From positions 1 through 64,000 of IMG/VR virus record IMGVR_UViG_3300033149_002633: a DNA stretch of 64,000 bases, one strand, 5' to 3'. This DNA comes from a virus. Made by a program: the position numbers and the translations under genes. The notes under the pieces were generated by a model. It did not search any database and was not told the origin of the DNA. It saw nothing but the letters and a program-made list of their open reading frames with translations. Within the stretch, counting starts at the first letter, position 1; each line of letters begins with the position of its first letter. Positions 5,157 through 50,666 of the stretch are shown piece by piece.

Positions 5157-7055
5157 TTAAAAAAGACGATAAAATTCAGTAGCCCAGAGAATATTGTTTT
5201 CATCAATGAAATATTGATATTTGATAGTCGAAGAAACAGTAGTAAGAACAACTTCGTTCCATTGTTGTTCAGTGAGATACTCACGAGAACAACGTAAGAT
5301 GTGACTGTTATTAAGTTCAAAGACGAAGATGGTATTATCATCAACTACATAAGAGCCAATGTTCTTAACTTCTGCGATTGTGTAATCATCACCCACATTA
5401 GTATTGTTGCTAAACATAGACTTGAACTCCAATCTTGTTTCTCTGACTACCTCACTCGCACTCATACCTTCTGCTTCAGTCATAGCGACCATATTAGTGT
5501 CCTTAGCATCGATGATACAGAAATATGACAATCTGTATAGTTCTCCATTTGTCCAATAGACTGGGATGTAATATGCCAATCTGTAACCTACAGCAGTCTC
5601 GATAGTGTAAAGAATAGGCATACCAGCATTGTAAGAGCCTCCACTGGGAGAGACAATCATCCCTTCTGCTATTCGTTCAACAGTGTCAGTAGAGATTAAG
5701 CCAAAATCTCGTAAATCATAGTAAGTCATATGACCAGTTCTATCAACCTTGAAAAGTCCAAAAAGAGACTTAGAAGAGGAAAGGAGACCAGTTCTCGGAA
5801 TGGTTGGTAAGACTGCTATAACTTCACTTCTATTATCTGGATTTACTATGTAGCGTAAGTCTTCGACCCATTCAAATCTATCTTGAGAAGCTCTTCTAAA
5901 CAAACCCCAACCAGCCCAAAAACTGATATTGGTGTCGTAACGTGTGTCACGTTTTTTTCCCCATCTATCTACCATTCTCTCAATTAGTTTTTCAGAATAG
6001 ACTTGTATCACATAGTCTGGCAAATGGTCATATTCATCGAGGGAATAAGATTTGAGTAGAGACCCATCTGAGACATCAATGATATCTATACCATCTGCAT
6101 ACCATCTACCCCAAACATCTTTAGTAGTCTTAGTACATACATAGACCCATTTCTTCAACTCATTGTCCCAAGCTGGATAATTGCGAGTATAAGTATATTC
6201 TCCTTCTCCAGACCATACATGAGTGTTGTCACGTCTAAAGTTGAGAACGTTAAGTCTGTGATTATACCAGAGATTGTCTGCATAATTAAAATCTTTAACT
6301 TTAATCACGATAGGCTCAGCGTTAGGATTGTTTGTATTGACGAGGATAATACCCACGATTTTATTATTTCTTTCTGGTATTCTGGTCTCGTAACGATATA
6401 AAAGTAACCAATACAAAGTCCCATTTATCTTTACAACGTTCATGTCTGCAATCTGGAGATGGCTCCCAAATACAGACGAATGTTGTTTTGCTATACTAAT
6501 AGCAAAATCCTTAGTAACTAAGCGAATGTCCGTATCCAATGCTTCGTTATTGAAAGGTAACTCCCCAGTTACGTAATCTATGTTCTCATCTACCCAATAA
6601 GCCATATCCATATGCATATTAGCCAAAATAATAGGAACACCAATTATTAAGAATAGGAGAGACAGCACAGTTAATATACCTAATATCCAGTCAGAAAATA
6701 AAATTATAGATTTATGGAGTTTGTCTTCTTGATTGACTAACACAGAAAATGAAATAATGATATTAATAGGGAATAATATCGTAGTCCATTGCCAAGCCAT
6801 ATTTAACATCATTCTTGTCCAGAACACAAATCCCCAGCATAGAAAGATTATTGGTATCGATAGAATAATACAGAGGATTAGAGGAGTAAAATCATAAGAG
6901 AATTCATAGTAATATTTTTTCTTTTTCTTTTTCTTTTTCTCCTTGTCAGTATAACTATGGTTATACTCTTTTTCAACATTCAATCCCAGCACGAAAGCTA
7001 GGAATATATAAGGCAAAAATGCCAATAAAAAAACAAATACACTACTTGCATACAC
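5157..7055 (-). CDS. Large membrane-anchored protein (about 4 N-terminal TM helices, beta-rich extramembrane domain)
   Basis: 632 aa; GGTGA RBS before GTG; hydrophobic N-terminal segments. Confidence 0.8.
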   Translation of the reverse strand: MYASSVFVFLLAFLPYIFLAFVLGLNVEKEYNHSYTDKEKKKKKKKKYYYEFSYDFTPLILCIILSIPIIFLCWGFVFWTRMMLNMAWQWTTILFPINIIISFSVLVNQEDKLHKSIILFSDWILGILTVLSLLFLIIGVPIILANMHMDMAYWVDENIDYVTGELPFNNEALDTDIRLVTKDFAISIAKQHSSVFGSHLQIADMNVVKINGTLYWLLLYRYETRIPERNNKIVGIILVNTNNPNAEPIVIKVKDFNYADNLWYNHRLNVLNFRRDNTHVWSGEGEYTYTRNYPAWDNELKKWVYVCTKTTKDVWGRWYADGIDIIDVSDGSLLKSYSLDEYDHLPDYVIQVYSEKLIERMVDRWGKKRDTRYDTNISFWAGWGLFRRASQDRFEWVEDLRYIVNPDNRSEVIAVLPTIPRTGLLSSSKSLFGLFKVDRTGHMTYYDLRDFGLISTDTVERIAEGMIVSPSGGSYNAGMPILYTIETAVGYRLAYYIPVYWTNGELYRLSYFCIIDAKDTNMVAMTEAEGMSASEVVRETRLEFKSMFSNNTNVGDDYTIAEVKNIGSYVVDDNTIFVFELNNSHILRCSREYLTEQQWNEVVLTTVSSTIKYQYFIDENNILWATEFYRLF

Positions 7056-9488: not shown

Positions 9489-9935
9489 TCACTCCATGTT
9501 TTCTACAAATTTGGTTATTCTCTCATTGATATAGTCTTCACTTCCCCAGATTACTTCTATTTTGATAGAAGGGTCTCCATTCCATAGATAGTGTAATCCA
9601 TGTCTCTTAAGTACTTTACATAGTTCTTTTCCGACTTCTTTAGTAGTTAAAGGTGGTTTTACTCCTTGTTGTTCCATTTCGTATGTGTCAGAGGGAATAT
9701 AAGAGATATATACTCCACCATTTTCTTCTTTGAATGCTTTATCTTCTTGTTGGTGCCAGTATATTACTCCTTTGGGTATTTTCCCAGTTTCTTTCCATTT
9801 CTTTTCTATCTTTGAGAAAAGAGAGTATTGAGCACAAGTATTACAGCACATGTAATTAATTCTTGCTATAAATCCATCTTTTCTCAAATCCCTAAAAACA
9901 TCTTTTAGTCTTTCTCTTGTTTGATATCCGTTCAT
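9489..9935 (-). CDS. DUF6891-like protein
   Basis: RL..VF..L...G..AR.NY.CCxxC, YWHQQ, EVG.E....L...GL...WNG....I.V pattern. Confidence 0.65.
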   Translation of the reverse strand: MNGYQTRERLKDVFRDLRKDGFIARINYMCCNTCAQYSLFSKIEKKWKETGKIPKGVIYWHQQEDKAFKEENGGVYISYIPSDTYEMEQQGVKPPLTTKEVGKELCKVLKRHGLHYLWNGDPSIKIEVIWGSEDYINERITKFVENME

Positions 9936-15790: not shown

Positions 15791-16468
15791 ATGACACCAT
15801 ACAACATATTTAAAGAATTTACGCTTCCAACTCGTAGTCAGTTGGTGTTGTTAAAAGAAAAGTCATTTTTGACTGTAGAAGACGTATCGAAAATATTTGG
15901 ATATAGTAAAGAGACTATACGGAAGAGAATAAGAGAAGGAGATATACCAGCTAAGCGGGAAGTTACAAAATATTTGATACCATCTAAAGCTGTATATGAT
16001 AAAACTTCAACGTTGCTTACTGCTCTGAAAAATATGGAGATAGAAACAACAATAGTTCCAGAGATATACAATAGAGTATTCTATAAAGCAACAATACAAC
16101 ATCCAATAGATTTTACAATAAAGAATGAAGAAATTGTAATAATATTTGACGTAAATATAAAGAAAGAGACTACTCACTTTACGACTTTTGCATTAACTAT
16201 TCTTTATGTAAATGGAGAAAAACCAAGTATATCTGGTGATAATATCATAGCAACTATACATGTATTCTTTGACATTGATAATTCTGTTACTGGATTAGAG
16301 ATAGAGAAAATGTGGGACAAAGAGAATAGATTTGATTATTCTCATACTCCAAAAGTCATAAGTAGAAAGTGGAGAACAGTCATATATTGGATAATCAATA
16401 CATTTGTCTTGAAATTCTATAATACGGAGGATGAAAAATTTGTTAGAGAAAGAGAGATTAATAGTTAG
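15791..16468 (+). CDS. Excisionase/MerR-like HTH (HTH_17-type) DNA-binding protein with C-terminal beta domain
   Basis: FLTVEDVSKIFGYSKETIRKRIREGDIPA...YLIP. Confidence 0.85.
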   Translation: MTPYNIFKEFTLPTRSQLVLLKEKSFLTVEDVSKIFGYSKETIRKRIREGDIPAKREVTKYLIPSKAVYDKTSTLLTALKNMEIETTIVPEIYNRVFYKATIQHPIDFTIKNEEIVIIFDVNIKKETTHFTTFALTILYVNGEKPSISGDNIIATIHVFFDIDNSVTGLEIEKMWDKENRFDYSHTPKVISRKWRTVIYWIINTFVLKFYNTEDEKFVREREINS

Positions 16469-17158: not shown

Positions 17159-17543
17159 AATAAAAGAAAAAGGTGTGCTTGAGTTCCTCGCAGAACAGAA
17201 ATCGAAGTTAGAAAGGGAAGATATAAATGGCGACATCATAGATGCTCTCTATGAAGACGAAGAAGTAAAAAGACTTATCTTACGTGCTAATGAGCTAAAG
17301 AAGGAGTTAAAAAGTATAGAAACTACACTTAAGGAAGTCGATAAAATAGCTCTTGATGCTCTTAAGAGACGTAAAATAAAGAAAGCTGAAACATCAACGT
17401 TTAAACTCACTTTAGTTCAACAGACAAGATATGAGCTGGATAAACAATCATTACAAGAGTTCTTATCTATCAATGGTAAGACTTTAGAAGAGTTTCAGAC
17501 AGAGAAGGAAGTGACATATATTAGGAGGACTATCAAGAAATGA
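17124..17543 (+). CDS. Coiled-coil protein, Gp157/Gam-like architecture
   Basis: Coiled coil followed by ETSTFKLTL..QTRYELDK. Confidence 0.5.
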   Translation: MKKMATKKELAEIKEKGVLEFLAEQKSKLEREDINGDIIDALYEDEEVKRLILRANELKKELKSIETTLKEVDKIALDALKRRKIKKAETSTFKLTLVQQTRYELDKQSLQEFLSINGKTLEEFQTEKEVTYIRRTIKK

Positions 17544-17749
17544 GTTTGTCAGATACTTTATATCTTTTCTTTCTTTTTTTCAGTGGAATTATGGCTATAC
17601 AAGGGTTTTATGCTGTTCTATATAACTTATTAGAAAAAGATAAAATCTTGAAAGTATCTACAGAAAAAGAGTATAGAATTAGTTTTTTATGGCAATTTTT
17701 ATGGTTTATTTTTTGGTCTATTAGTTTTTTCTTTATTTATGCATCTTAG
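17540..17749 (+). CDS. Small two-TM membrane protein
   Basis: Two hydrophobic segments; ATGA coupling; GGAGG RBS. Confidence 0.7.
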   Translation: MSLSDTLYLFFLFFSGIMAIQGFYAVLYNLLEKDKILKVSTEKEYRISFLWQFLWFIFWSISFFFIYAS

Positions 17750-22315: not shown

Positions 22316-22546
22316 TTAGGTAAAGTATATTATAATTTGTTTTATTGTAAATACTGTCATAAGTGCTACCACAAAGAATATTAAAATGTATAATATGAAT
22401 ATTGCTAATATTAGTAGTAATAATCTACTTATACCTAATTCTTCAATATCTATATCTGGTTTCAGTTTTATTTCTAAACCAAATACGAACAACCATAGTG
22501 TTGTTGTTATGGAAATATACAATGATAACAATGTTATGTGTATCAT
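22316..22546 (-). CDS. Small two-TM membrane protein, leaderless
   Basis: cgaaaggtttaaata promoter at 22568-22582; ATG 22 nt downstream. Confidence 0.75.
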   Translation of the reverse strand: MIHITLLSLYISITTTLWLFVFGLEIKLKPDIDIEELGISRLLLLILAIFILYILIFFVVALMTVFTIKQIIIYFT

Positions 22547-22585: not shown

Positions 22586-23449
22586 CTATTGATAAGAAAT
22601 ATAATGTTCAATATATTTCTTTTTTAATCTTCTATTTGTTGTCGATATCATTGCTTCTGAAATATCACAAACATAATAGTTACATCCTAAGTTTTTTGCG
22701 ACAAAAGCTGTAGTTCCTCCTCCCACAAAACTATCATAAACAGTTAATCCATTACCAAATTTAGGGTGTGACTTTAATGCGCATTCGACTAACATTGGTG
22801 GAAACTCGGCTGGATTATATTTTTTAATATATTGATTGTATTTCAGTATAGGTATTACCCACACATCTCCAATATCCTTGAAGGCTCTACCAAATTTTTC
22901 TTTATACTTATCTATTACTTTCTTATATCTCTTGTCATTCAGATATTCTTCTGACAAATTTTCTCCTATAAGGTCTTTCCTTATTTTTACGTTTCCCTTT
23001 CCGAATAATAATATCATCTCTTTATATGATGAGAATTTACTGATTACCTTGAAAGGGTCTAAATGTTGTTTATTCGGCATTACCCAACATATATCTTGTA
23101 TGAATTTCCAGTTTGACATTTCTTCTATTTGCTCACCGATAAAAACAATTTCGGATAATGATTGGAGTGGCTTGGAGCTGTTTATCTTCATGTTCAAATA
23201 CATTAATGCTCCATCAGAACAAATTTTATCGGTAGGATAAAGAGAGTGTATAATCATATCCATCCATTCACTATCTGGCTTGTTATCAATATAACCAGTA
23301 TATGGAATTCCAATATTATATGGAGGAGATGTAATAATTATATCCACTTTAGGGTAATTATAGTATTCTATCAGAGAATAAATATAATTATGAAAAGAAA
23401 TAGCATCATATTGTTTTATGACTTTATATTGTTTTACTACTTCGTTCAT
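22586..23449 (-). CDS. N4-cytosine/N6-adenine DNA methyltransferase, beta class
   Basis: TSPPYN catalytic motif precedes DSFVGGGTT SAM-binding motif. Confidence 0.92.
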   Translation of the reverse strand: MNEVVKQYKVIKQYDAISFHNYIYSLIEYYNYPKVDIIITSPPYNIGIPYTGYIDNKPDSEWMDMIIHSLYPTDKICSDGALMYLNMKINSSKPLQSLSEIVFIGEQIEEMSNWKFIQDICWVMPNKQHLDPFKVISKFSSYKEMILLFGKGNVKIRKDLIGENLSEEYLNDKRYKKVIDKYKEKFGRAFKDIGDVWVIPILKYNQYIKKYNPAEFPPMLVECALKSHPKFGNGLTVYDSFVGGGTTAFVAKNLGCNYYVCDISEAMISTTNRRLKKKYIEHYISYQ

Positions 23450-29645: not shown

Positions 29646-30008
29646 ATGAAAGAAGAAGAAAAATCTGATATACAATCAAATGATTTGATTATTTCTCTCA
29701 ATTGGTTAAAAGGTACAGCGATAGATATTGATAAAATATCACGTCATGAAGAAGATATAACTTTTAAGGTGATATATAAGATATTACCAGATATATATAA
29801 CAGATTTGTAATCTTTAGAGTAGAAGTAGAAACAAAAATTAAAAAAGAAATCGATGAAAGGGAAGTAAAGTATTTACGTGATTTGATAAAAAAATCAGTA
29901 GGAGAATTGTTTGAAACAGCACCATATAATATAATGACGACAGATAAAGGTACAGTTATAGTTTTTCCTTTTTATAGGATTATTGATTCTTCAGAAACTT
30001 TTAGATGA
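29646..30008 (+). CDS. Hypothetical protein
   Basis: GGTGA RBS. Confidence 0.75.
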   Translation: MKEEEKSDIQSNDLIISLNWLKGTAIDIDKISRHEEDITFKVIYKILPDIYNRFVIFRVEVETKIKKEIDEREVKYLRDLIKKSVGELFETAPYNIMTTDKGTVIVFPFYRIIDSSETFR

Positions 30009-30017
30009 GGTGATACT

Positions 30018-30347
30018 ATGTCAATAAGTCTTTCTGATTTAACTGAGATAGACCAGTTTGATGTATGTAAAATGTTGTTAGATGGTAAAGAACCTATGTT
30101 CCATGGTAAGAGAGTTGAGATACCTAATATGCTTTCAGCTAGATATACTTGTATTTCATGTGGTGATGTTATGACCCCTATGTTTTACAAATCTGACCTT
30201 AGTAACATTTCTAAGAGAGTTATGTGTTCTAAATGTATGAATTGGTCTGTTTTACACTTTATTGGTACTCCAGTTCAACATGAAGTTAAAAAACTGAAAA
30301 AAGTTGTACAAAAACGTTTAATGGAATTTAATTTAGAAGGTGTATAA
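30018..30347 (+). CDS. Zn-ribbon protein with C-terminal PIP box
   Basis: CISC...CSKC; QKRLMEF matches QxxLxxF. Confidence 0.7.
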   Translation: MSISLSDLTEIDQFDVCKMLLDGKEPMFHGKRVEIPNMLSARYTCISCGDVMTPMFYKSDLSNISKRVMCSKCMNWSVLHFIGTPVQHEVKKLKKVVQKRLMEFNLEGV

Positions 30348-30816
30348 GATGGAAGAAAAAGAAATATTTGAAAAGATAAAAGAGAGTAATATACAACATA
30401 TTAAATTTTCTATTGAGGATGAGATTAAATGGTTATTTGAAAAATGTAATGAGGAAGAATTAAAGAGTCTGCGTTCTTTAATTCATGACTTTAAAAGGAC
30501 TAAAGAGTTTCATATAAAGATGGAAGAAATAAAAGAGGATAAAATTTCTGATTATTTCTTATTAGATGATTGTCCTTTTTTGTTTTTTGGTGCTACTGTC
30601 TATGTTCCTAAGTATTATCCATATAGAAATGCAGATTGGATTAAATTTAAAGTTACGATGTTAGATAAAATACACATAGATACATTTGATATTTGGAGAG
30701 AATTGGCTGAAAAATTGGGAGTTGAATACTATGACTTAATAATTAGAGCTTCTACTAATGGTATGTTTCAATATATTAATGAGATAATGAGGGAGAAAAT
30801 ACATGGGGAAAAATAG
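30340..30816 (+). CDS. Hypothetical protein
   Basis: Operon position. Confidence 0.7.
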   Translation: MYKMEEKEIFEKIKESNIQHIKFSIEDEIKWLFEKCNEEELKSLRSLIHDFKRTKEFHIKMEEIKEDKISDYFLLDDCPFLFFGATVYVPKYYPYRNADWIKFKVTMLDKIHIDTFDIWRELAEKLGVEYYDLIIRASTNGMFQYINEIMREKIHGEK

Positions 30817-30863
30817 AACCGAAAACTATAAATCTCATCCTTTTCTTTTTTATATTGATAACA

Positions 30864-31247
30864 ATGGAAATAAATTATGAACAAGCAATGTTTTGGCTTT
30901 GGGTAGCAACTGTAGGTGGAACATTTCTTGGTACTACACTTTTCGTTCTAATCAGAAAATTACAAGGGAAACCAGTTGCAGCTCCAGAATTGATTAAGCT
31001 TTTTCAAAATCATAATAGATTAATTATGTTGTGGTTTTGGAGAGCATTAGAAGATGGAGTTATAACTAATGAAGAAGCAATGGAGTTTAAAACTATTGTA
31101 ACACAAGGATTTCAAGATATTCTTTCATTTATTCTTACGACTTATGGGAAACCAGAGTTGAAAGAAACCAACGATAAAGTAGTCATTCCAGAGCCTCCTT
31201 CTGCTGAAGAAATAAGAAATGAACTACCTCCTCCAGAGCCAAAGTAA
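30864..31247 (+). CDS. Single-TM membrane protein (holin/antiholin-like candidate)
   Basis: N-terminal TM FWLWVATVGGTFLGTTLFVLI; Pro/Glu tail; promoter at 30820-30833. Confidence 0.6.
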   Translation: MEINYEQAMFWLWVATVGGTFLGTTLFVLIRKLQGKPVAAPELIKLFQNHNRLIMLWFWRALEDGVITNEEAMEFKTIVTQGFQDILSFILTTYGKPELKETNDKVVIPEPPSAEEIRNELPPPEPK

Positions 31248-31250
31248 AAA

Positions 31251-32108
31251 TTAGATTATTCTTTTTTTAGTTTTCTTTTTTCTTTGTTTCTTTCTATTAT
31301 GAGTTATGAGAGCATTTTGTACTTCCCAAAGGTAATTAGGTAATTCAAATACTTCTTCTTCTTTATCTACGCCTAACATTTTCCCAAATATTTGAGGTGA
31401 GAAAACTACTATCATTGTAAATAATGATGCCATGATTATTACTAAAACAGAATTATTTACAATCCATTCTACAAGAGCTGAATTGCTATTTAGTTGTTGA
31501 TTTAAATAGCTTACAATAGCTACTAAGATAGAACCTCCCATACCTCCTAACAGACCAGAATTTCTGGCTTTTCCTAATTCATTCTTAAAGGTATTGACCA
31601 GATTTTCGCTATTTTTAGCTATGTATGACATTTGAATTTTGGTTTCTTGTATGTCACATCTTGTATCTACTATCTCTTGCGATAGTTGTGCTAAACCTCT
31701 TTCTAAGTTATAGATTCTTTGGCGTAGTATATTTACTGTTACTTTATCGATATGCATTTCAATTTCTGCTAATAAGTTTGGAATGTTTATTGGTTTCTTG
31801 AAGACATTTTTAACACCGGCATTTAAAAACTCTTCATCATCATCATCGTTAAAACCAGTGATACCTACTATAACTGCGTCTGGGTCGATTTTTAGTATTT
31901 CTTCTGTTGCTCTACTTCCACTCATAGTTGGCATGACTTTATCCATTAAGACTATATCTGGCATAATCTTCCTATATGATTTTACGGCTTCGTCTCCGTT
32001 GTTTAATACTACTACTTCGAAACCACGTTCTTCAAATTTAGTGGCGAGTGCTTTTGCAAACTCATCATTATCATCTACAATCATGACGCAGTTTCTGTAA
32101 CTCATCAA
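31251..32108 (-). CDS. CheY-like receiver domain fused to a coiled coil and two TM helices
   Basis: IVDD, LMDKVMPTMSG, GITG, KKP; heptad region; two hydrophobic segments; basic C-terminus. Confidence 0.9.
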   Translation of the reverse strand: MMSYRNCVMIVDDNDEFAKALATKFEERGFEVVVLNNGDEAVKSYRKIMPDIVLMDKVMPTMSGSRATEEILKIDPDAVIVGITGFNDDDDEEFLNAGVKNVFKKPINIPNLLAEIEMHIDKVTVNILRQRIYNLERGLAQLSQEIVDTRCDIQETKIQMSYIAKNSENLVNTFKNELGKARNSGLLGGMGGSILVAIVSYLNQQLNSNSALVEWIVNNSVLVIIMASLFTMIVVFSPQIFGKMLGVDKEEEVFELPNYLWEVQNALITHNRKKQRKKKTKKRII

Positions 32109-32140
32109 TTTAAAGGTAGAAAAAAAATATAAAAATTTAT

Positions 32141-33118
32141 TTATGCTATTAATTCTGTCATATATTTCTCGATAGTTTCAAAGCTTTGTTTATCATCACT
32201 ATAAGTGGATATCATCTCTATTTCTGGATAAGAAGGTGAATAGAAACCAAATTCTTCACATTCATATACATAACTACATACCATACAAAATTTCTGCATA
32301 CCTACATTTCTTGTCAAATGGTTTATCGTGAGTGGTTGCGGGTCACGAAATTTTTTCTGAGCACGTTTGAAATCCTCCACTTTTATTGCATACCATTTAA
32401 CTTGATATTTTGCACCTCCTAATAATACACACATTGTGTATGGTTTTCCGCTATGGAAGTAATAAGGTATATTTTTTAACATCGCTGATAATTTTTTAAA
32501 GTATTCTGAACTTGTTAATAGATGAAAATATCCACATAATTGAATATAATGATTGGGTAGTGATGATACACTACTCTTCCAATCAATTATTAGGATTTTC
32601 CATCCTACTGGTGTCTTAAATAATGTTAATAAGTCTATGGTTCCAGAGAAAGAATTTAATTCGTCTATAGTACCATCATCTTTTCTTACTATATGTCTTA
32701 ATTTCTTTTCTATTGCTATTATCTTTATCTTGCCTTTATAGTCTCTCCAGAAAGATACAAAGTTATTATATACTCTTTCTATTTCGTTTATGAATATGCT
32801 AAAGCGTTGTTTATTATTCATTAGTCTTGATAACAGTTTTCTATCTTCTGGTGATAATACTACTTGTTCTGTTTGTAATCCTATTTGTTGTCTTAGAAAG
32901 TTCTCTATTTTACCATGAATTATTGTTCCAGCAATAGCCTTTAGGTTATTTCTTATTTTTTTATCTTTATGTATCTTTTTCCAGTTTTCTATACCTACTC
33001 TATCTCTTTCATGGATAGGATGGAGATATCCACTCATCTCGCATACTATTGTCTGTGCTATCTCTGTAGTTCTTGGTATTAAGTATTCTCTATTGTTTTC
33101 TCTGTAAATATAAGGCAT
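32141..33118 (-). CDS. Cas4/AddB-like PD-(D/E)xK exonuclease with Fe-S cysteines
   Basis: N-terminal Cys, GTIIH, GTIDL, IIDWKS, QLCGY, CMVCSYVYEC. Confidence 0.85.
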   Translation of the reverse strand: MPYIYRENNREYLIPRTTEIAQTIVCEMSGYLHPIHERDRVGIENWKKIHKDKKIRNNLKAIAGTIIHGKIENFLRQQIGLQTEQVVLSPEDRKLLSRLMNNKQRFSIFINEIERVYNNFVSFWRDYKGKIKIIAIEKKLRHIVRKDDGTIDELNSFSGTIDLLTLFKTPVGWKILIIDWKSSVSSLPNHYIQLCGYFHLLTSSEYFKKLSAMLKNIPYYFHSGKPYTMCVLLGGAKYQVKWYAIKVEDFKRAQKKFRDPQPLTINHLTRNVGMQKFCMVCSYVYECEEFGFYSPSYPEIEMISTYSDDKQSFETIEKYMTELIA

Positions 33119-33119
33119 A

Positions 33120-33716
33120 TTACTCTCCTTTTTGTTTATTTTGTACAAGGTTACTTAGTTTATTGATTTTCTTTTGAGCTTTTACAGCTATTTCTGAATA
33201 ACCTTTCTTTTCTGCTTCTTTCATTATTGATTGTAGTCTTTTTATATCATTTGTTTTATCTATTTCTCCTTCCATCATTTTCATTTCTATTTCTGCTATT
33301 TTCTTTTCTGCTGGTTCTTCCACTTCCATCTCTTGTTTGAATTGTTCTTTAGTTCTCTTTGCTTCTAATCCTACAGCTTTTAAGACATCTCCAAGTTTAG
33401 CATAGCCTTTTTTAGGTGGTGGAGCTGGTGAATTTAATTCTTCCAGAGTTAATGATGGAGGTTCTATTTCTATTTTTGACATTTTTCTAAGTGCTTCTTC
33501 TGTCCTCTTTTTTTCCTCTTGTATTTTATCTAGCTCTTCTTGTGTTACATAAAAATCATATCTTGTCATGTAGATAGGGTTTCTAATGCATTGGTATTGA
33601 CCACACCATCCCCAAGGTCTTTCTCTTTTTGTTTTGGGGTCAAATGCTCTGATATATCGAGCACATCTTTCTTTTTTATTTTTTCCAACGAAAAATTCAC
33701 ATTCCATAATAATCAC
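33120..33716 (-). CDS. Cys-containing N-terminal domain plus charged helical tail
   Basis: 198 aa; promoter near 33740-33755. Confidence 0.7.
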   Translation of the reverse strand: MIIMECEFFVGKNKKERCARYIRAFDPKTKRERPWGWCGQYQCIRNPIYMTRYDFYVTQEELDKIQEEKKRTEEALRKMSKIEIEPPSLTLEELNSPAPPPKKGYAKLGDVLKAVGLEAKRTKEQFKQEMEVEEPAEKKIAEIEMKMMEGEIDKTNDIKRLQSIMKEAEKKGYSEIAVKAQKKINKLSNLVQNKQKGE

Positions 33717-33742
33717 TAACTAATTGAACATATTGAACAAAT

Positions 33743-34027
33743 TTAAACCTTTCTATCCTCCTTAATGATTATGTCTATTTCAGTCTCGAACCCATCATAA
33801 TCTACTTTTCTTCGATGTTCATTACATACTGCAACGAAAGATAGTTTATGTGTTATTATATCTTCTATTAATAGAAGGTGAGTAGGAGGATTATTACAAC
33901 CAATTCTGTTACATTTATTTTGATGTTTAATCCATTTGACTATCTTTTTTTGTTCATTGAGAGGTAAAGAAAAGAAAAGTAGATTGAGAGCTGATAGGTT
34001 TCCGATTTCTCTTGTTTCAGTCATCAT
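33743..34027 (-). CDS. Zn-finger protein (C..C...CxxH)
   Basis: CNRIGC...CNEH. Confidence 0.65.
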   Translation of the reverse strand: MMTETREIGNLSALNLLFFSLPLNEQKKIVKWIKHQNKCNRIGCNNPPTHLLLIEDIITHKLSFVAVCNEHRRKVDYDGFETEIDIIIKEDRKV

Positions 34028-46350: not shown

Positions 46351-49300
46351 CTATGCATAATAACACTGTAATAACGGAGGACTATATTCTAAGTATCCAG
46401 CAGTAGCAACTATTGATACTATCTTTATTGTAACCATATGATATATGGAAACATCAATAGCAGTAAATGTTTCTGTTTTTAAACCAATAGTATTGTATTC
46501 AGCACTTGTATATATCAATGGAATTCCAGTATCTGTCATACCATAAATATAAACTCTACAATAATTTGAAGTATCAGCATCAGAAACTGACAATTTTAAT
46601 CCACTTATGTATAATTTAAGAGCACCTTTTGCAGTAGGTAAAGGTAAAACCCAATAAGTCGAATAATCTGTTCCCCCTTCATTACCTACACGACCATTCG
46701 TAGCTTTGAAATATAAAGCTCCAGTACTTTCCATATAATATGGACAAGGTACCCAAGCTGCGTTAGCTGACCCAAACATGACAAAATCAGAAAGTTTCTT
46801 AGTTGAACCTCCATTATAAAACTCAAAATCATTATTAGCAGTAACAGTTTTATTAAAATAAAACTTAGGTATATCAGTATTAGTATTAAAATGACACCAA
46901 TTAGCATTTTGTGGTCCTATATCTACATAACCATTAGTTGTTTTTACTCTGGTTACACCAGTAGTTTGTATCCTTAAATAACCACTTGAACCACTATGAA
47001 TTAAGAACAATGCACCACTATTATCATCACTTTTAGTACTAATATTCCAATAACCAACTCATCTCTATAAATATTTACTTTATCATTTGAAGCTCTTAAA
47101 ATAACATCTTCTCCACTTGCACCAGCAGTACCATCATTAGCTCTTAACTCTACATAACCATTAGCAGTACGGTTACATAAAGCAACTACTTTGTTAGTAG
47201 AATCAAAGAATAAACCATATCTTGTATCAGTATCTCCAGTCGGTTTATAGGTTATACCATATTGAGCACTTTCCATAAAAAAGTCTATACCCGTTTTATC
47301 AATATCTATTAATTTTGTATTATCACTATCCCCGTCATATAAAGTTAAATAATGACGACTATTTTTAGCAGATATCTCTAAAGCTTTTTTAATATACGAT
47401 GTACCATAATTTTCTAAATAAACTTCTAATCCAAACCCGTTGCCTCCATCTTCTGCATCTTGAGCTCGTGTTCTTAACCAAGACAAAACGGTATAATTAG
47501 TTGAATTATACCAAGCATTTCCTTTCAAAGTTAATCTTGGACTATATGCATCAGCATCAGTAGTTGTATTTACAAGAACGAAACCATCTGTAGCAATAGT
47601 TTTTTTAATAACTATTGCATCAGATTCTTCCATCATTATACTATCAGTTAAAACACCAGTACTTTCCCATTTAGGGATATAACCAGTGGTTACATTAGTA
47701 CCTTGTGAAATATCTCCAGTTCCAGCATCTCCATTTATCCAATTTCCAGTTCCACTATCATATACAAGCACTTGACCATCAGAAAGGGATGATATATTTA
47801 CATCACTTAAATCGTCTAAAGCGTGGGTATGACTTATAGAAGCATATTTAGAACTTAAAGAAGCTCCTCCTTCATAGATAGTTCCAGAAACTGATAAATC
47901 TTCGATTATATCAACACTATTATCAAATAAAGCATCTCCACCTACTTCTAATCCATAACCAGTAGATACACTAGTACTACCTCGATTTATACTTGTTATT
48001 CCAGTTAGCCATTGTCTATCATCATAAATATAAGCACCAACACTCCCATCATTTCCTTTTATCATTAAACCATCAGTCAATGGAGCAATGATTCCACCAT
48101 TAGTTGGAGGAGAGCCTATTGTTATAGTATTAGTATTAATAATATCATTAGAATAAATTGTAGCCCATCTTTTATTACTTGAACCTAAACCAGCTATATT
48201 ATCAGAATATGGTGTTATATTTCCATTTACTGCTACATTATTTCCAAACCAAAAACCACTATTTGCATCTGTTGTTAAATGAGCATATGTTGTATTACCA
48301 GCTCCTATTCTAATAGTTTTACCAGATGTAGCATTATAAATACCTAAAGAAGCTCCATAACCACTATCATCTGGTTGTAAAGTAATATCTAATGCGTCAC
48401 TTAATAATATACTTTTACTAATTAATTTATTCCATCTGTTTGATGTTGTTCCTAAATCAGCTCCTCCATCAGTATAAGGTCTAAATAATTTATTAACATA
48501 CATAGCATAGGGAGTTATAACTAAAAAATTATCCCATGAAAAAGTATTACCAGCTGTTCCACTTACTGCTACTTTTAAGTAAATTTCTCCATTACAACCT
48601 TCAAAATTTTGCTCGATAGCAGTTGCACCATTATTAGTTGTCTCATAAATATAACCACTGTTATAATAACAACCTCCTCTAAAATTCCAATTTCCACCCC
48701 CATCATTACAAGTAATCTTTTTTATTCCCTTACCAGAATCTCCAGTATTATCCATAGAAAGATAGGCAGAACCATGTGTTAGTTTCAAATGTTGTGCAGA
48801 AATAGTTAATGTGTTAGAAAAGTTCCAACTACCACTTATTGTTTCATCTTGACCTAAATGAGCGTATTGTGGGTGGTCATCATCATTCAAACCTAATAAA
48901 TTACCATGGTCAATAGAAGATTCAGTAAAGTGAATGCTACTGTCAGATATATGATTGTCTATATCTGTATGAGAATTAACTCCTATATTTTTTAAATCAT
49001 TATGGTCTATACCAACAGTTGAGCCACTGAAAGATACTGAACCACTAAAAACTGTTGAACCACTAAATGTCCAATCTCCAGTAATAGTTTCATTCTCACT
49101 TAAAGCTGCAAAATAACTACTATCATATCCGTCTAAAGTATCGGCGTTTAATCCTACCTCATCTACTGCAATAGTTAAAGTGTTAGCTACATCATCATAA
49201 GTTAATGAGATGTTACTACCAGCTACTAACAGATTACTTACTCTATCATCAACCCGTTCATCAGTATAATATAGATTTGTTGTTCCTTCTACTATATTGT

Positions 49301-50666
49301 CTGTTGTCTTTCCAGAGAGCCATGTATCAGCTCTTCCGTCAGTATGGTATTGGGGATGGTCGTCATCTGTTAAACCAGCTAAATCTCCATGGTCAATTAT
49401 GTTAGGCTTAGTATATTCTATTGAGAATGTTGTTCTAACGTCTATCCATGCATCGCTTGGGAAAGGAGGAAGTTCAGTATCTCCTTCTTGTGTTATAAGA
49501 GCTATTGATTTAGGTAAAATACTTAATCCATCTGGTATATTAGGTAAAGCACCATTTACAGCATCAGCAAAGTTGTTGAAATATTCTTGTGGATAAATCC
49601 AATGAATTTCAGTTGGAGAAACAATAAACAAGCTTTTAACATATTTATTAACTGGTAAAGCAGCTAAACCAGTTCCAGTATCATAATTAACAGTGTCTAT
49701 TGTAGAACTTGTATCAGAAACCCAGTTACCAGAAGCGTCATGATACCATCTTCTTATCAGTGTTACTGTACTATCTATTGATGGTACAGTAACTTTAACA
49801 TTCATATTTTCATAATATTCTCCACCATCTGTTTTAACTGCTAAAGCTGTAACACCTTGTGGCTCTACTATTAAACCTTTCTTAACAAATTCTGGGAATA
49901 AATCTTTAAGAGCTTTAAACCCATCATTAAACGCAAATGATACACTATTCTCTTGATGTATCCTATAAATACTACCATTGACACATGATACTCTACCAAG
50001 TAGAATATGGTTAAAATTAGGAAAAGTAGTAGATACTTGAACACCTAATCCTTCATTGGCATAATCTATATACAGATAATTTACTGCATTATCTGTTAGA
50101 GTTGCTGAACCACTTTCAAAGCTTTTTACATCATTACTATATATGTTGTTATAATGACCTTCAGTCCATGATATAGTCAATCCTCCAAGCGAACTTAATT
50201 CTCCTCCTTGAAGGAGCCAATTAGGTGTAACATGTTCAAACATGTCATGGACTGTATGAACTGTTGAACCATCACTATCATAATGATGTGCTATTAATTT
50301 TGCACCAAATCCATCTCCAATAGAATATAAATCAGCTCTTAAAGTAGCATCCGAAGAACCAGAACCCCATTCCTCAAAAGGTCTAGCTACACCACTAACT
50401 ATAGCATAAACATTATTTTCATTAGCAAAAATACCGAATTTTGTTCCAGTTAAAATAGTATCCTTAACATTTCCTAAAGTTCCAGAACCAAATCCAATGA
50501 CTACTTTGTTAGCATCGAATTCTATAAAACCACTACTACTATCCCATGTTTTTCCACTTAATACTCCAGATGAAGTAAGCTCGTAACCATCTATATCTAT
50601 AAATAAAGCTGAATAAGCTTCATTTGCTCCACTTGTAATATAGTCTGATGATATATAAAATGTCAT
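46351..50666 (-). CDS. Long tail fibre, split by a frameshift near 47040-47060
   Basis: DH..L.GL.DDDHPQY repeats, EGTTNLYYT..RV, HTH.LDDLSDV; downstream ORF continues fibre motifs in the -1 frame. Confidence 0.8.

Follow-up and report, generated by a model that had tools for sequence, protein, structure and literature searches.

The window analyzed here comprises bases 1-64,000 of a 79,254-bp virus record in IMG/VR (IMGVR_UViG_3300033149_002633, labelled G000). A gene on its minus strand encodes a protein of 284 or 285 amino acids (aa) in which a CheY-like response-regulator receiver (REC) domain is joined to a long helix, two transmembrane (TM) helices, and a very basic tail, and which we refer to as the membrane-anchored response regulator (Table 1). 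An earlier note on this DNA had placed the protein at 30864-32108, a range that spans two convergent genes, its start at 30864 taking in the neighboring gene on the plus strand. The two open reading frames (ORFs) are separated by 3 nt, and the neighbor does encode a single TM helix, as the note had said. At the start of the regulator gene, a TTG at 32108 (285 aa) is directly followed by an ATG at 32105 (284 aa). The ATG is likely the true start, giving the same 284-aa form that is present in the protein collection. A TATA-like sequence, TTTTTATAT, falls in the 32-nt gap between the upstream exonuclease gene and the regulator gene, and the latter may have its own promoter and a leaderless or short-leader mRNA.

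Table 1 Features of the membrane-anchored response regulator, its convergent neighbor, and the virus-encoded kinase (positions in the window; for the kinase, positions in the complete record)
Feature	Position	Strand	Support
Membrane-anchored response regulator, whole ORF	31251..32108	-	ORF list; identical 284-aa protein P0001 in the protein collection
REC domain with D11, D12, D55, T83, and K104 intact	31761..32087	-	Pfam PF00072; six-frame search; family alignment; CheY-like fold
Long continuous helix (stalk/signaling), about 73 residues, continuing receiver alpha5	31566..31784	-	AlphaFold2 (AF2) helix 108-180; family alignment
TM helix 1 (TM1), Gly-rich, weakly hydrophobic, GLLGGMGGSILVAIVSYL	31491..31553	-	AF2 helix 185-205; in all family members
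Short polar loop with conserved N...S, then TM helix 2 (TM2) ending in a conserved Pro	31377..31478	-	AF2 helices 210-243; hydropathy
Cytoplasmic C-terminal region (predicted): acidic stretch, conserved NYLW motif, Lys/Arg-rich tail ending in KKRII	31254..31376	-	Segment charges; AF2
TATA-like box	32127..32135	-	About 26 nt upstream of the ATG at 32105; sequence reading
Convergent neighbor, 130 aa, one N-terminal TM helix, Pro-rich tail	30855..31247	+	ORF list
REC-PAS-HisKA-HATPase_c kinase, 498 aa, outside the window	73158..74654	+	Domain search

By profile, catalytic residues, and fold, the N-terminal domain belongs with the response-regulator receivers. Pfam Response_reg (PF00072) matched residues 8-116 with an E value of 2.7e-20 and a score of 73 bits against a cutoff of 30.2. 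In the 284-aa numbering, the acidic pair is D11/D12, the phospho-acceptor is D55 in the sequence LMDKVMP, and the remaining canonical positions are T83 in GITG and the lysine of K104-P105. An AF2 model of the protein, built from a five-sequence family alignment, gave the receiver a (beta-alpha)5 fold with predicted local distance difference test (pLDDT) values of 80-89 across the domain. Foldseek placed this domain on Thermotoga maritima CheY with a template modeling score of 0.91 and a root-mean-square deviation of 1.4 A, and the best match in a sequence search of the PDB was CheY of Pyrococcus horikoshii (E 2e-24). The earlier note's intact CheY-like receiver is therefore borne out by Pfam, by all five catalytic residues, and by the AF2 and Foldseek results, and the domain is apparently phosphorylatable. 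The protein as a whole is not a CheY equivalog. The top NCBIfam match, CheY_Halo, scored 65.9 bits against a cutoff of 200, and the 285-aa protein has two TM helices and is encoded among replication genes.

Downstream of the receiver, the coiled coil, the two TM helices, and the very basic tail described in the earlier note were likewise recovered, from the AF2 helix, from hydropathy, and from tail composition. The motif EIEMHIDKVTVNILRQR, located where the stalk helix begins at its junction with alpha5, is the family-specific stretch with the highest conservation, and 13 of 21 a/d positions in the best heptad register of the stalk are hydrophobic. Kyte-Doolittle hydropathy was weak for TM1 (1.6) and strong for TM2 (2.3), and N206, S209, and P237 were invariant in the family alignment. 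The last 20 residues contain 10 Lys/Arg and no Asp/Glu; pLDDT was low in this tail, which is likely disordered. Charge by segment was +2 ahead of TM1, -1 in the loop of 5-12 residues, and +9 in the tail, and a predicted N-in/C-in topology of the hairpin fits both these charges and a receiver that must be cytoplasmic. A homodimer prediction for two copies of residues 105-250 scored 0.02, which counts neither way.

The part of the protein that follows the receiver defines a small family. An exhaustive HMMER search with residues 120-285 alone against 1.84 billion representatives returned four relatives and one repetitive artefact, and one further relative came from a profile built on two sequences of the module. 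The artefact was the phmmer match P0004, a repetitive acidic protein of 996 aa, which was set aside as a compositional or coiled-coil match. With near-identical cluster members, the family comprises seven sequences among 5.8 billion proteins (P0001, P0002, P0003, P0005/P0007, P0006, and P0008). Every member is 257-288 aa long and begins with a receiver or receiver-like domain, from which a long helix leads to the two TM helices; an N-Y-L-W/Y motif comes next, and the basic tail is Lys/Arg-rich throughout the family and ends in two hydrophobic residues. The earlier note had proposed a search for homologs lacking the receiver; among the family members found, none carried the module without its N-terminal domain or in another fusion, and all were full length. 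The canonical acidic pair, Asp, Thr, and Lys are present in the target, P0002, P0003, and P0005. In P0006 and P0008, the acidic pair is replaced by Y-G or G-K while D55 and K104 are kept, and the domain is missed by Pfam; these two are pseudo-receivers.

So far, every contig found to carry a family member is either viral or a short metagenomic one, those of P0002, P0003, P0007, and P0008 being 27.5, 8.1, 46.9, and 5.3 kb long, respectively. Matches at the level of the receiver only were obtained from 185,579 GTDB species genomes (profile A2), from JGI metagenome contigs (query P0002), and from GenBank phages. A profile of the C-terminal module gave three chance-level matches in 400 Asgard genomes, with E values of about 2e-4, which were discarded as short frames, two of the three with internal stops. 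Thus, a full-length architecture that is common in cellular genomes, which the earlier note had named as evidence that would speak against its reading, was not found in the GTDB and Asgard genomes searched. With the C-terminal module, P0002, P0003, or P0007 as the query, IMG/VR gave no match, and the one IMG/VR contig with a family member, G001, was recovered by alignment A1 alone. Fold searches with the C-terminal module (ESM Atlas, BFVD Foldseek, and VIA-align wide), for which the model was of low confidence, returned generic long-helix and coiled-coil matches only. PADLOC gave weak matches confined to the receiver, and all NCBIfam matches were far under their cutoffs. In the searches made here, the C-terminal module is thus a virus-restricted family with a constant full-length architecture, and it represents a new output architecture for a known signaling domain.

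The absence of a histidine kinase reported in the earlier note holds for the window but not for the virus, since the complete record encodes one at 73158-74654. A six-frame REC search of the whole record gave exactly two REC matches, the second of which (73179-73499) lies within this kinase, and there was a single HATPase_c match, making this the sole kinase in the record. Its HATPase_c domain scored 69 bits against a cutoff of 26.4. The HisKA match was weak (19.5 against 26.9), and the H-box, AHDLNNKL, is intact. The same genome therefore contains a receiver and a kinase with both an H-box and an ATPase domain. Kinases with an N-terminal receiver and the order REC-PAS-HisKA-HATPase are very common in archaea (PMC5847659). 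The nearest named relatives of the viral kinase, at 30-40% identity, come overwhelmingly from Asgard archaea (Thor-, Heimdall-, Hod-, Loki-, and Odinarchaeota), which suggests an Asgard host, an assignment that draws on one gene and is consistent with a G+C content of 31%. It also agrees with the earlier note's expectation of a host rich in two-component systems. The closest relatives of any kind, P0010 and P0011, are shorter REC-HATPase proteins with 56-58% identity over 45% of the query; they are encoded on contigs of 1.6 and 20.6 kb, which may come from related viruses. An IMG/VR scan with the kinase gave no match. On the genome, the kinase gene adjoins a sulfotransferase-family gene (71532-72431, minus strand) and a 201-aa ORF, and the Phe/Pro-rich, low-complexity ORF further downstream (75041-75322, plus strand), in a zone of odd composition, is unlikely to be a real gene.

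The presence of this kinase bears on two roles that the earlier note had entertained, namely that the protein reads host phosphorylation and that it drains phosphate from host signaling. The first is not required, because the virus carries a REC-PAS-HisKA-HATPase kinase of its own. In the second case, the protein would be a membrane-tethered phosphate sink or decoy that drains host kinases such as CheA or membrane sensors, or competes with their regulators, and the hairpin would be a mere anchor. The closest solved and named relatives of the receiver are indeed CheY proteins (P. horikoshii, T. maritima, and CheY_Halo as the top NCBIfam match), the protein has no output domain of known activity, and an archaeal virus is reported to inhibit host motility strongly (PMC12542753). 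A sink needs a working phosphorylation pocket, however, and conservation of the stalk, hairpin, NYLW motif, and tail is as strong as that of the receiver and extends to the clade in which the acidic pair has been lost. Furthermore, the CheY_Halo score is far under its cutoff, and the virus has its own kinase. For these reasons, a phosphate sink appears improbable.

The genomic setting was compared with that in a related virus. The virus under study is a tailed virus of the archaeal type whose genome has direct terminal repeats of 114 bp. Among its genes are those for TerL, the tail sheath, baseplate J, and a family-B DNA polymerase (PolB). Further genes encode a DNA methylase, a superfamily 2 helicase, a PD-(D/E)XK-like exonuclease, a Sak4-like ATPase, and a 1190-aa ORF without a Pfam match; no tRNA genes were found in the record. 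Described verdandiviruses are siphovirus-like, about 20 kb in size, and lack replication genes, and the virus studied here is of another lineage. Family member P0006 is encoded on G001, a 74.7-kb contig from a relative of this virus (L030:10001-10774, plus strand). Proteins shared by the two include PolB (37% identity), the 1190-aa ORF (32%), the helicase (32%), the exonuclease (30%), baseplate J (28%), a 512-aa ORF at 67888-69426 of the G000 genome (28%), and TerL (27%). A scan of IMG/VR with a PolB profile recovered G001 again, together with two weak partial matches of 23-24% identity on contigs of 38.8 and 17.6 kb. CheckV-type completeness was 47% for G000, despite its terminal repeats and full replication, packaging, and tail modules, and 53% for G001; for this novel lineage, the first figure is probably unreliable, and the second probably is so in the same way.

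In G001, the gene is flanked on one side by the 1190-aa ORF's counterpart and on the other by the gene for the Sak4-like ATPase, both of which are on the opposite strand, and a 186-nt AT-rich divergent promoter region containing TTTATAAA precedes it. In the window, the block of helicase and exonuclease genes comes before it, and it is convergent with the Sak4-like block. As judged from strand and flanking sequence, the gene thus appears to be a separate transcription unit in each of the two viruses. No HATPase_c domain and no recognizable receiver were found in G001. A missing kinase together with a degenerate acidic pocket would be the co-variation expected of a kinase-receiver partnership, here seen in two genomes, one of them possibly incomplete.

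Replication and recombination genes surround the gene in both viruses (in G000, those for PolB, the methylase, the 1190-aa ORF, the Sak4-like ATPase, the exonuclease, and the helicase), and all members share the Lys/Arg-rich, predicted cytoplasmic tail. Both observations would fit a protein that tethers viral DNA replication or genome organization to the membrane, in which the basic tail binds DNA or replication proteins under the control of the receiver. The p16.7 protein of phage phi29 provides a functional analogy for such a tether, and an analogy alone. No DNA-binding fold or motif was recognized in the protein, however, and viral gene order among unrelated functions is loose, while the gene itself seems to form its own transcription unit in both genomes. 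Therefore, we see little to recommend a replication tether. A role in superinfection exclusion, or in modulating some other host membrane protein, would have the hairpin block a receptor or transporter. A membrane protein without an enzymatic domain and with a possible promoter of its own outside the late structural block would suit such a role. Genes of this kind are usually poorly conserved among distant relatives, though, and this one has been kept between viruses with about 30-40% identity in their core proteins, which makes exclusion very unlikely.

We instead favor, with a probability of roughly 0.5, a membrane-anchored response regulator that serves as the terminal acceptor of a relay owned by the virus and that has its output at the membrane, possibly in the timing of egress. 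According to this proposal, the PAS domain of the viral cytoplasmic kinase, the kinase's own receiver, or both would serve to sense an intracellular cue, and host kinases could feed that receiver. The kinase would then autophosphorylate on His291, from which the phosphate would move to Asp55 in the membrane protein. Phosphorylation of a receiver remodels its alpha4-beta5-alpha5 face, and in stalk-coupled regulators such as WspR this alters oligomerization. Because of this established receiver biology, phosphorylation of Asp55 may be expected to alter the packing or oligomeric state of the hairpin, with the change at alpha4-beta5-alpha5 traveling along the continuous alpha5-stalk helix and shifting how the hairpins pack or oligomerize in the membrane. 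Since the protein is without an enzymatic or DNA-binding domain, the output would have to be a membrane event, and the best single guess is that, late in infection, it controls the integrity of the membrane or the time of egress. In this scheme, we infer the pairing of kinase and receiver, the topology of the hairpin, the oligomerization mechanism, and the kind of membrane event.

Several observations weigh against this proposal. A distance of 41 kb separates the kinase and target genes, which are on opposite strands and in no common operon, and the kinase bears an N-terminal receiver of its own, such that it might act on itself or on host proteins. In the GTDB scan, the receiver of the target was not closest to Asgard receivers, and the two genes may therefore differ in origin. 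The clade of P0006 and P0008, with its pseudo-receivers, suggests that the membrane module can work without phosphorylation. AF2 confidence was low for the membrane part (pLDDT 50-65), and a model of the C-terminal module had a pLDDT of 61; TM1 in particular is only weakly hydrophobic. With respect to egress, the gene is located within a replication/recombination module in both genomes, with no recognizable lysis cassette, and Pfam scans of about 50 ORFs recognized no lysin. The egress component of the relay is therefore without contextual support.

Among the possible outputs, we nevertheless rank the timing of egress or membrane integrity first, with the phosphate sink, the replication tether, and superinfection exclusion as its rivals. 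This ranking was made because the protein has holin-like hallmarks, is the sole ORF of its kind in the genome, and is conserved across distant relatives, and because, according to reviews, no holin has yet been identified in archaeal tailed viruses (PMC10791045). As a separate reading, along the lines of the earlier note, the protein would be a phospho-gated holin or antiholin, in which the hairpin and basic tail form a hole and the receiver keeps it inactive until phosphorylation or dephosphorylation sets the time of lysis. The generic hallmarks of holins are a pair of TM helices in N-in/C-in topology and a strongly charged C-terminal tail (PMC10791045), and the target, with two TM segments, a predicted N-in/C-in topology, and a tail of +9, has at least one TM domain and the highly charged hydrophilic C-terminus expected of the class. 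No other ORF in the genome joins a TM hairpin to a strongly charged tail. The gene has also been kept between the two viruses despite about 30-40% identity in their core proteins. The Gly-rich, weakly hydrophobic TM1 recalls the releasable TMD1 of the phage 21 pinholin.

Other properties do not fit. Holins are small, typically under about 150 aa, and are encoded next to an endolysin, usually in a late lysis cassette, whereas the target has 285 aa and has exonuclease, helicase, and Sak4-like genes as neighbors. The earlier note had gone as far as likening the protein to holin/XhlA-type lysis proteins, for which no test provided support. XhlA (PF10779) was not matched, PF00072 being the sole Pfam family found at E <= 0.01. 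Neither Pfam nor PHROGs identified a holin family or anything else beyond the receiver, the fold searches were generic, and no lysin was recognized next to the gene or elsewhere among the ORFs scanned. Holins are too diverse for the lack of a family match to exclude membership. Overall, a phospho-gated holin or antiholin is a tentative and rather unlikely reading of the protein. It is similarly doubtful, and slightly more so, that this would be the first phospho-gated holin-type protein, through which the kinase of an Asgard virus times lysis by a sensed signal and not by holin concentration alone. Two small two-TM ORFs, at 17540-17749 (plus strand, 69 aa) and 22316-22546 (minus strand, 76 aa), were considered as alternative holins and rejected because they have no charged tail; they are other candidate small membrane effectors of this virus.

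Additional observations concern the flanking DNA and the remainder of the window. The 130-aa convergent neighbor had no family match in Pfam, PHROGs, NCBIfam, or PADLOC, and tblastn detected no counterpart in G001. The Lys-rich codons of the regulator's tail (31254-31300, minus strand) produce long T-runs on the plus strand right after the stop of this convergent gene, and a TTTTT run follows the stop of the regulator gene on the minus strand. Both may be archaeal oligo-T terminators, in which case the DNA of the tail would be coding and terminating at once. For positions 30000-34000, a search for sequencing runs, RNA included, listed none. The largest membrane protein of the virus is a 632-aa ORF (5157-7055, minus strand) with four N-terminal TM helices, for which there was no match in Pfam or NCBIfam. 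Other genes encode a DUF6891 protein (9489-9935, minus strand; E 1e-19), an HTH_17 regulator (15791-16468, plus strand), and the N6/N4 DNA methylase (22586-23449, minus strand), which sits between PolB and the 1190-aa ORF. A tail fiber of 1221 aa (47001-50666, minus strand) gave a weak endosialidase-type tail-spike signal that was under the cutoff (E 5e-5).

Two-component systems are regarded as cellular equipment. Our literature searches turned up no archaeal virus described as carrying a full set of kinase and regulator, and nothing relevant for Asgard viruses. Here, the output of the regulator would not be transcription but a membrane hairpin confined to a small viral family, a pattern suggesting that a sensed signal controls a membrane event directly, at the post-translational level. 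Membrane breach by archaeal tailed viruses is an acknowledged open question (PMC10791045). If the protein were a phospho-gated holin, the long-missing egress protein of these viruses would be identified, and it offers a concrete, expressible candidate for the breach, with Asp55 as the switch residue. Even with another function, a natural module that couples a receiver to a transmembrane segment should be of interest to signaling biochemists.

Several known systems share features with the protein. The receiver resembles CheY (P. horikoshii 6er7; T. maritima 1tmy and 4qyw) in its (beta-alpha)5 fold and in having each of the five conserved residues. CheY, however, is soluble, has about 120 aa, and docks to motor proteins, whereas this receiver is joined to a 165-aa helix, hairpin, and tail and is not accompanied by a che operon. 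In class II holins and pinholins such as S68 of phage 21, there are likewise two TM helices and a basic cytoplasmic C-terminus, with the same predicted N-in/C-in topology. In comparison with holins of the S68 type, the target is three to four times larger, has a cytoplasmic N-terminal sensor part of 180 residues, and has no adjacent lysin. The layout of the helix is that of WspR and of REC-stalk-GGDEF regulators of the PleD type, in which alpha5 runs into a long helix that passes phosphorylation on as oligomerization. There the output is an enzyme; here it is a transmembrane hairpin, for which a stalk-mediated oligomerization seems plausible. In the census of Galperin et al. 2018 (PMC5847659), archaeal receivers are fused to narrowly distributed, uncharacterized outputs, among which no REC-helix-2TM output is listed. 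The census does include the membrane-anchored MetOD3, but this domain is N-terminal (MetOD3-REC-MetOD2) and belongs to cellular proteins of Methanoregula, whereas the membrane module described here is C-terminal to its receiver and is carried on viral and metagenomic contigs.

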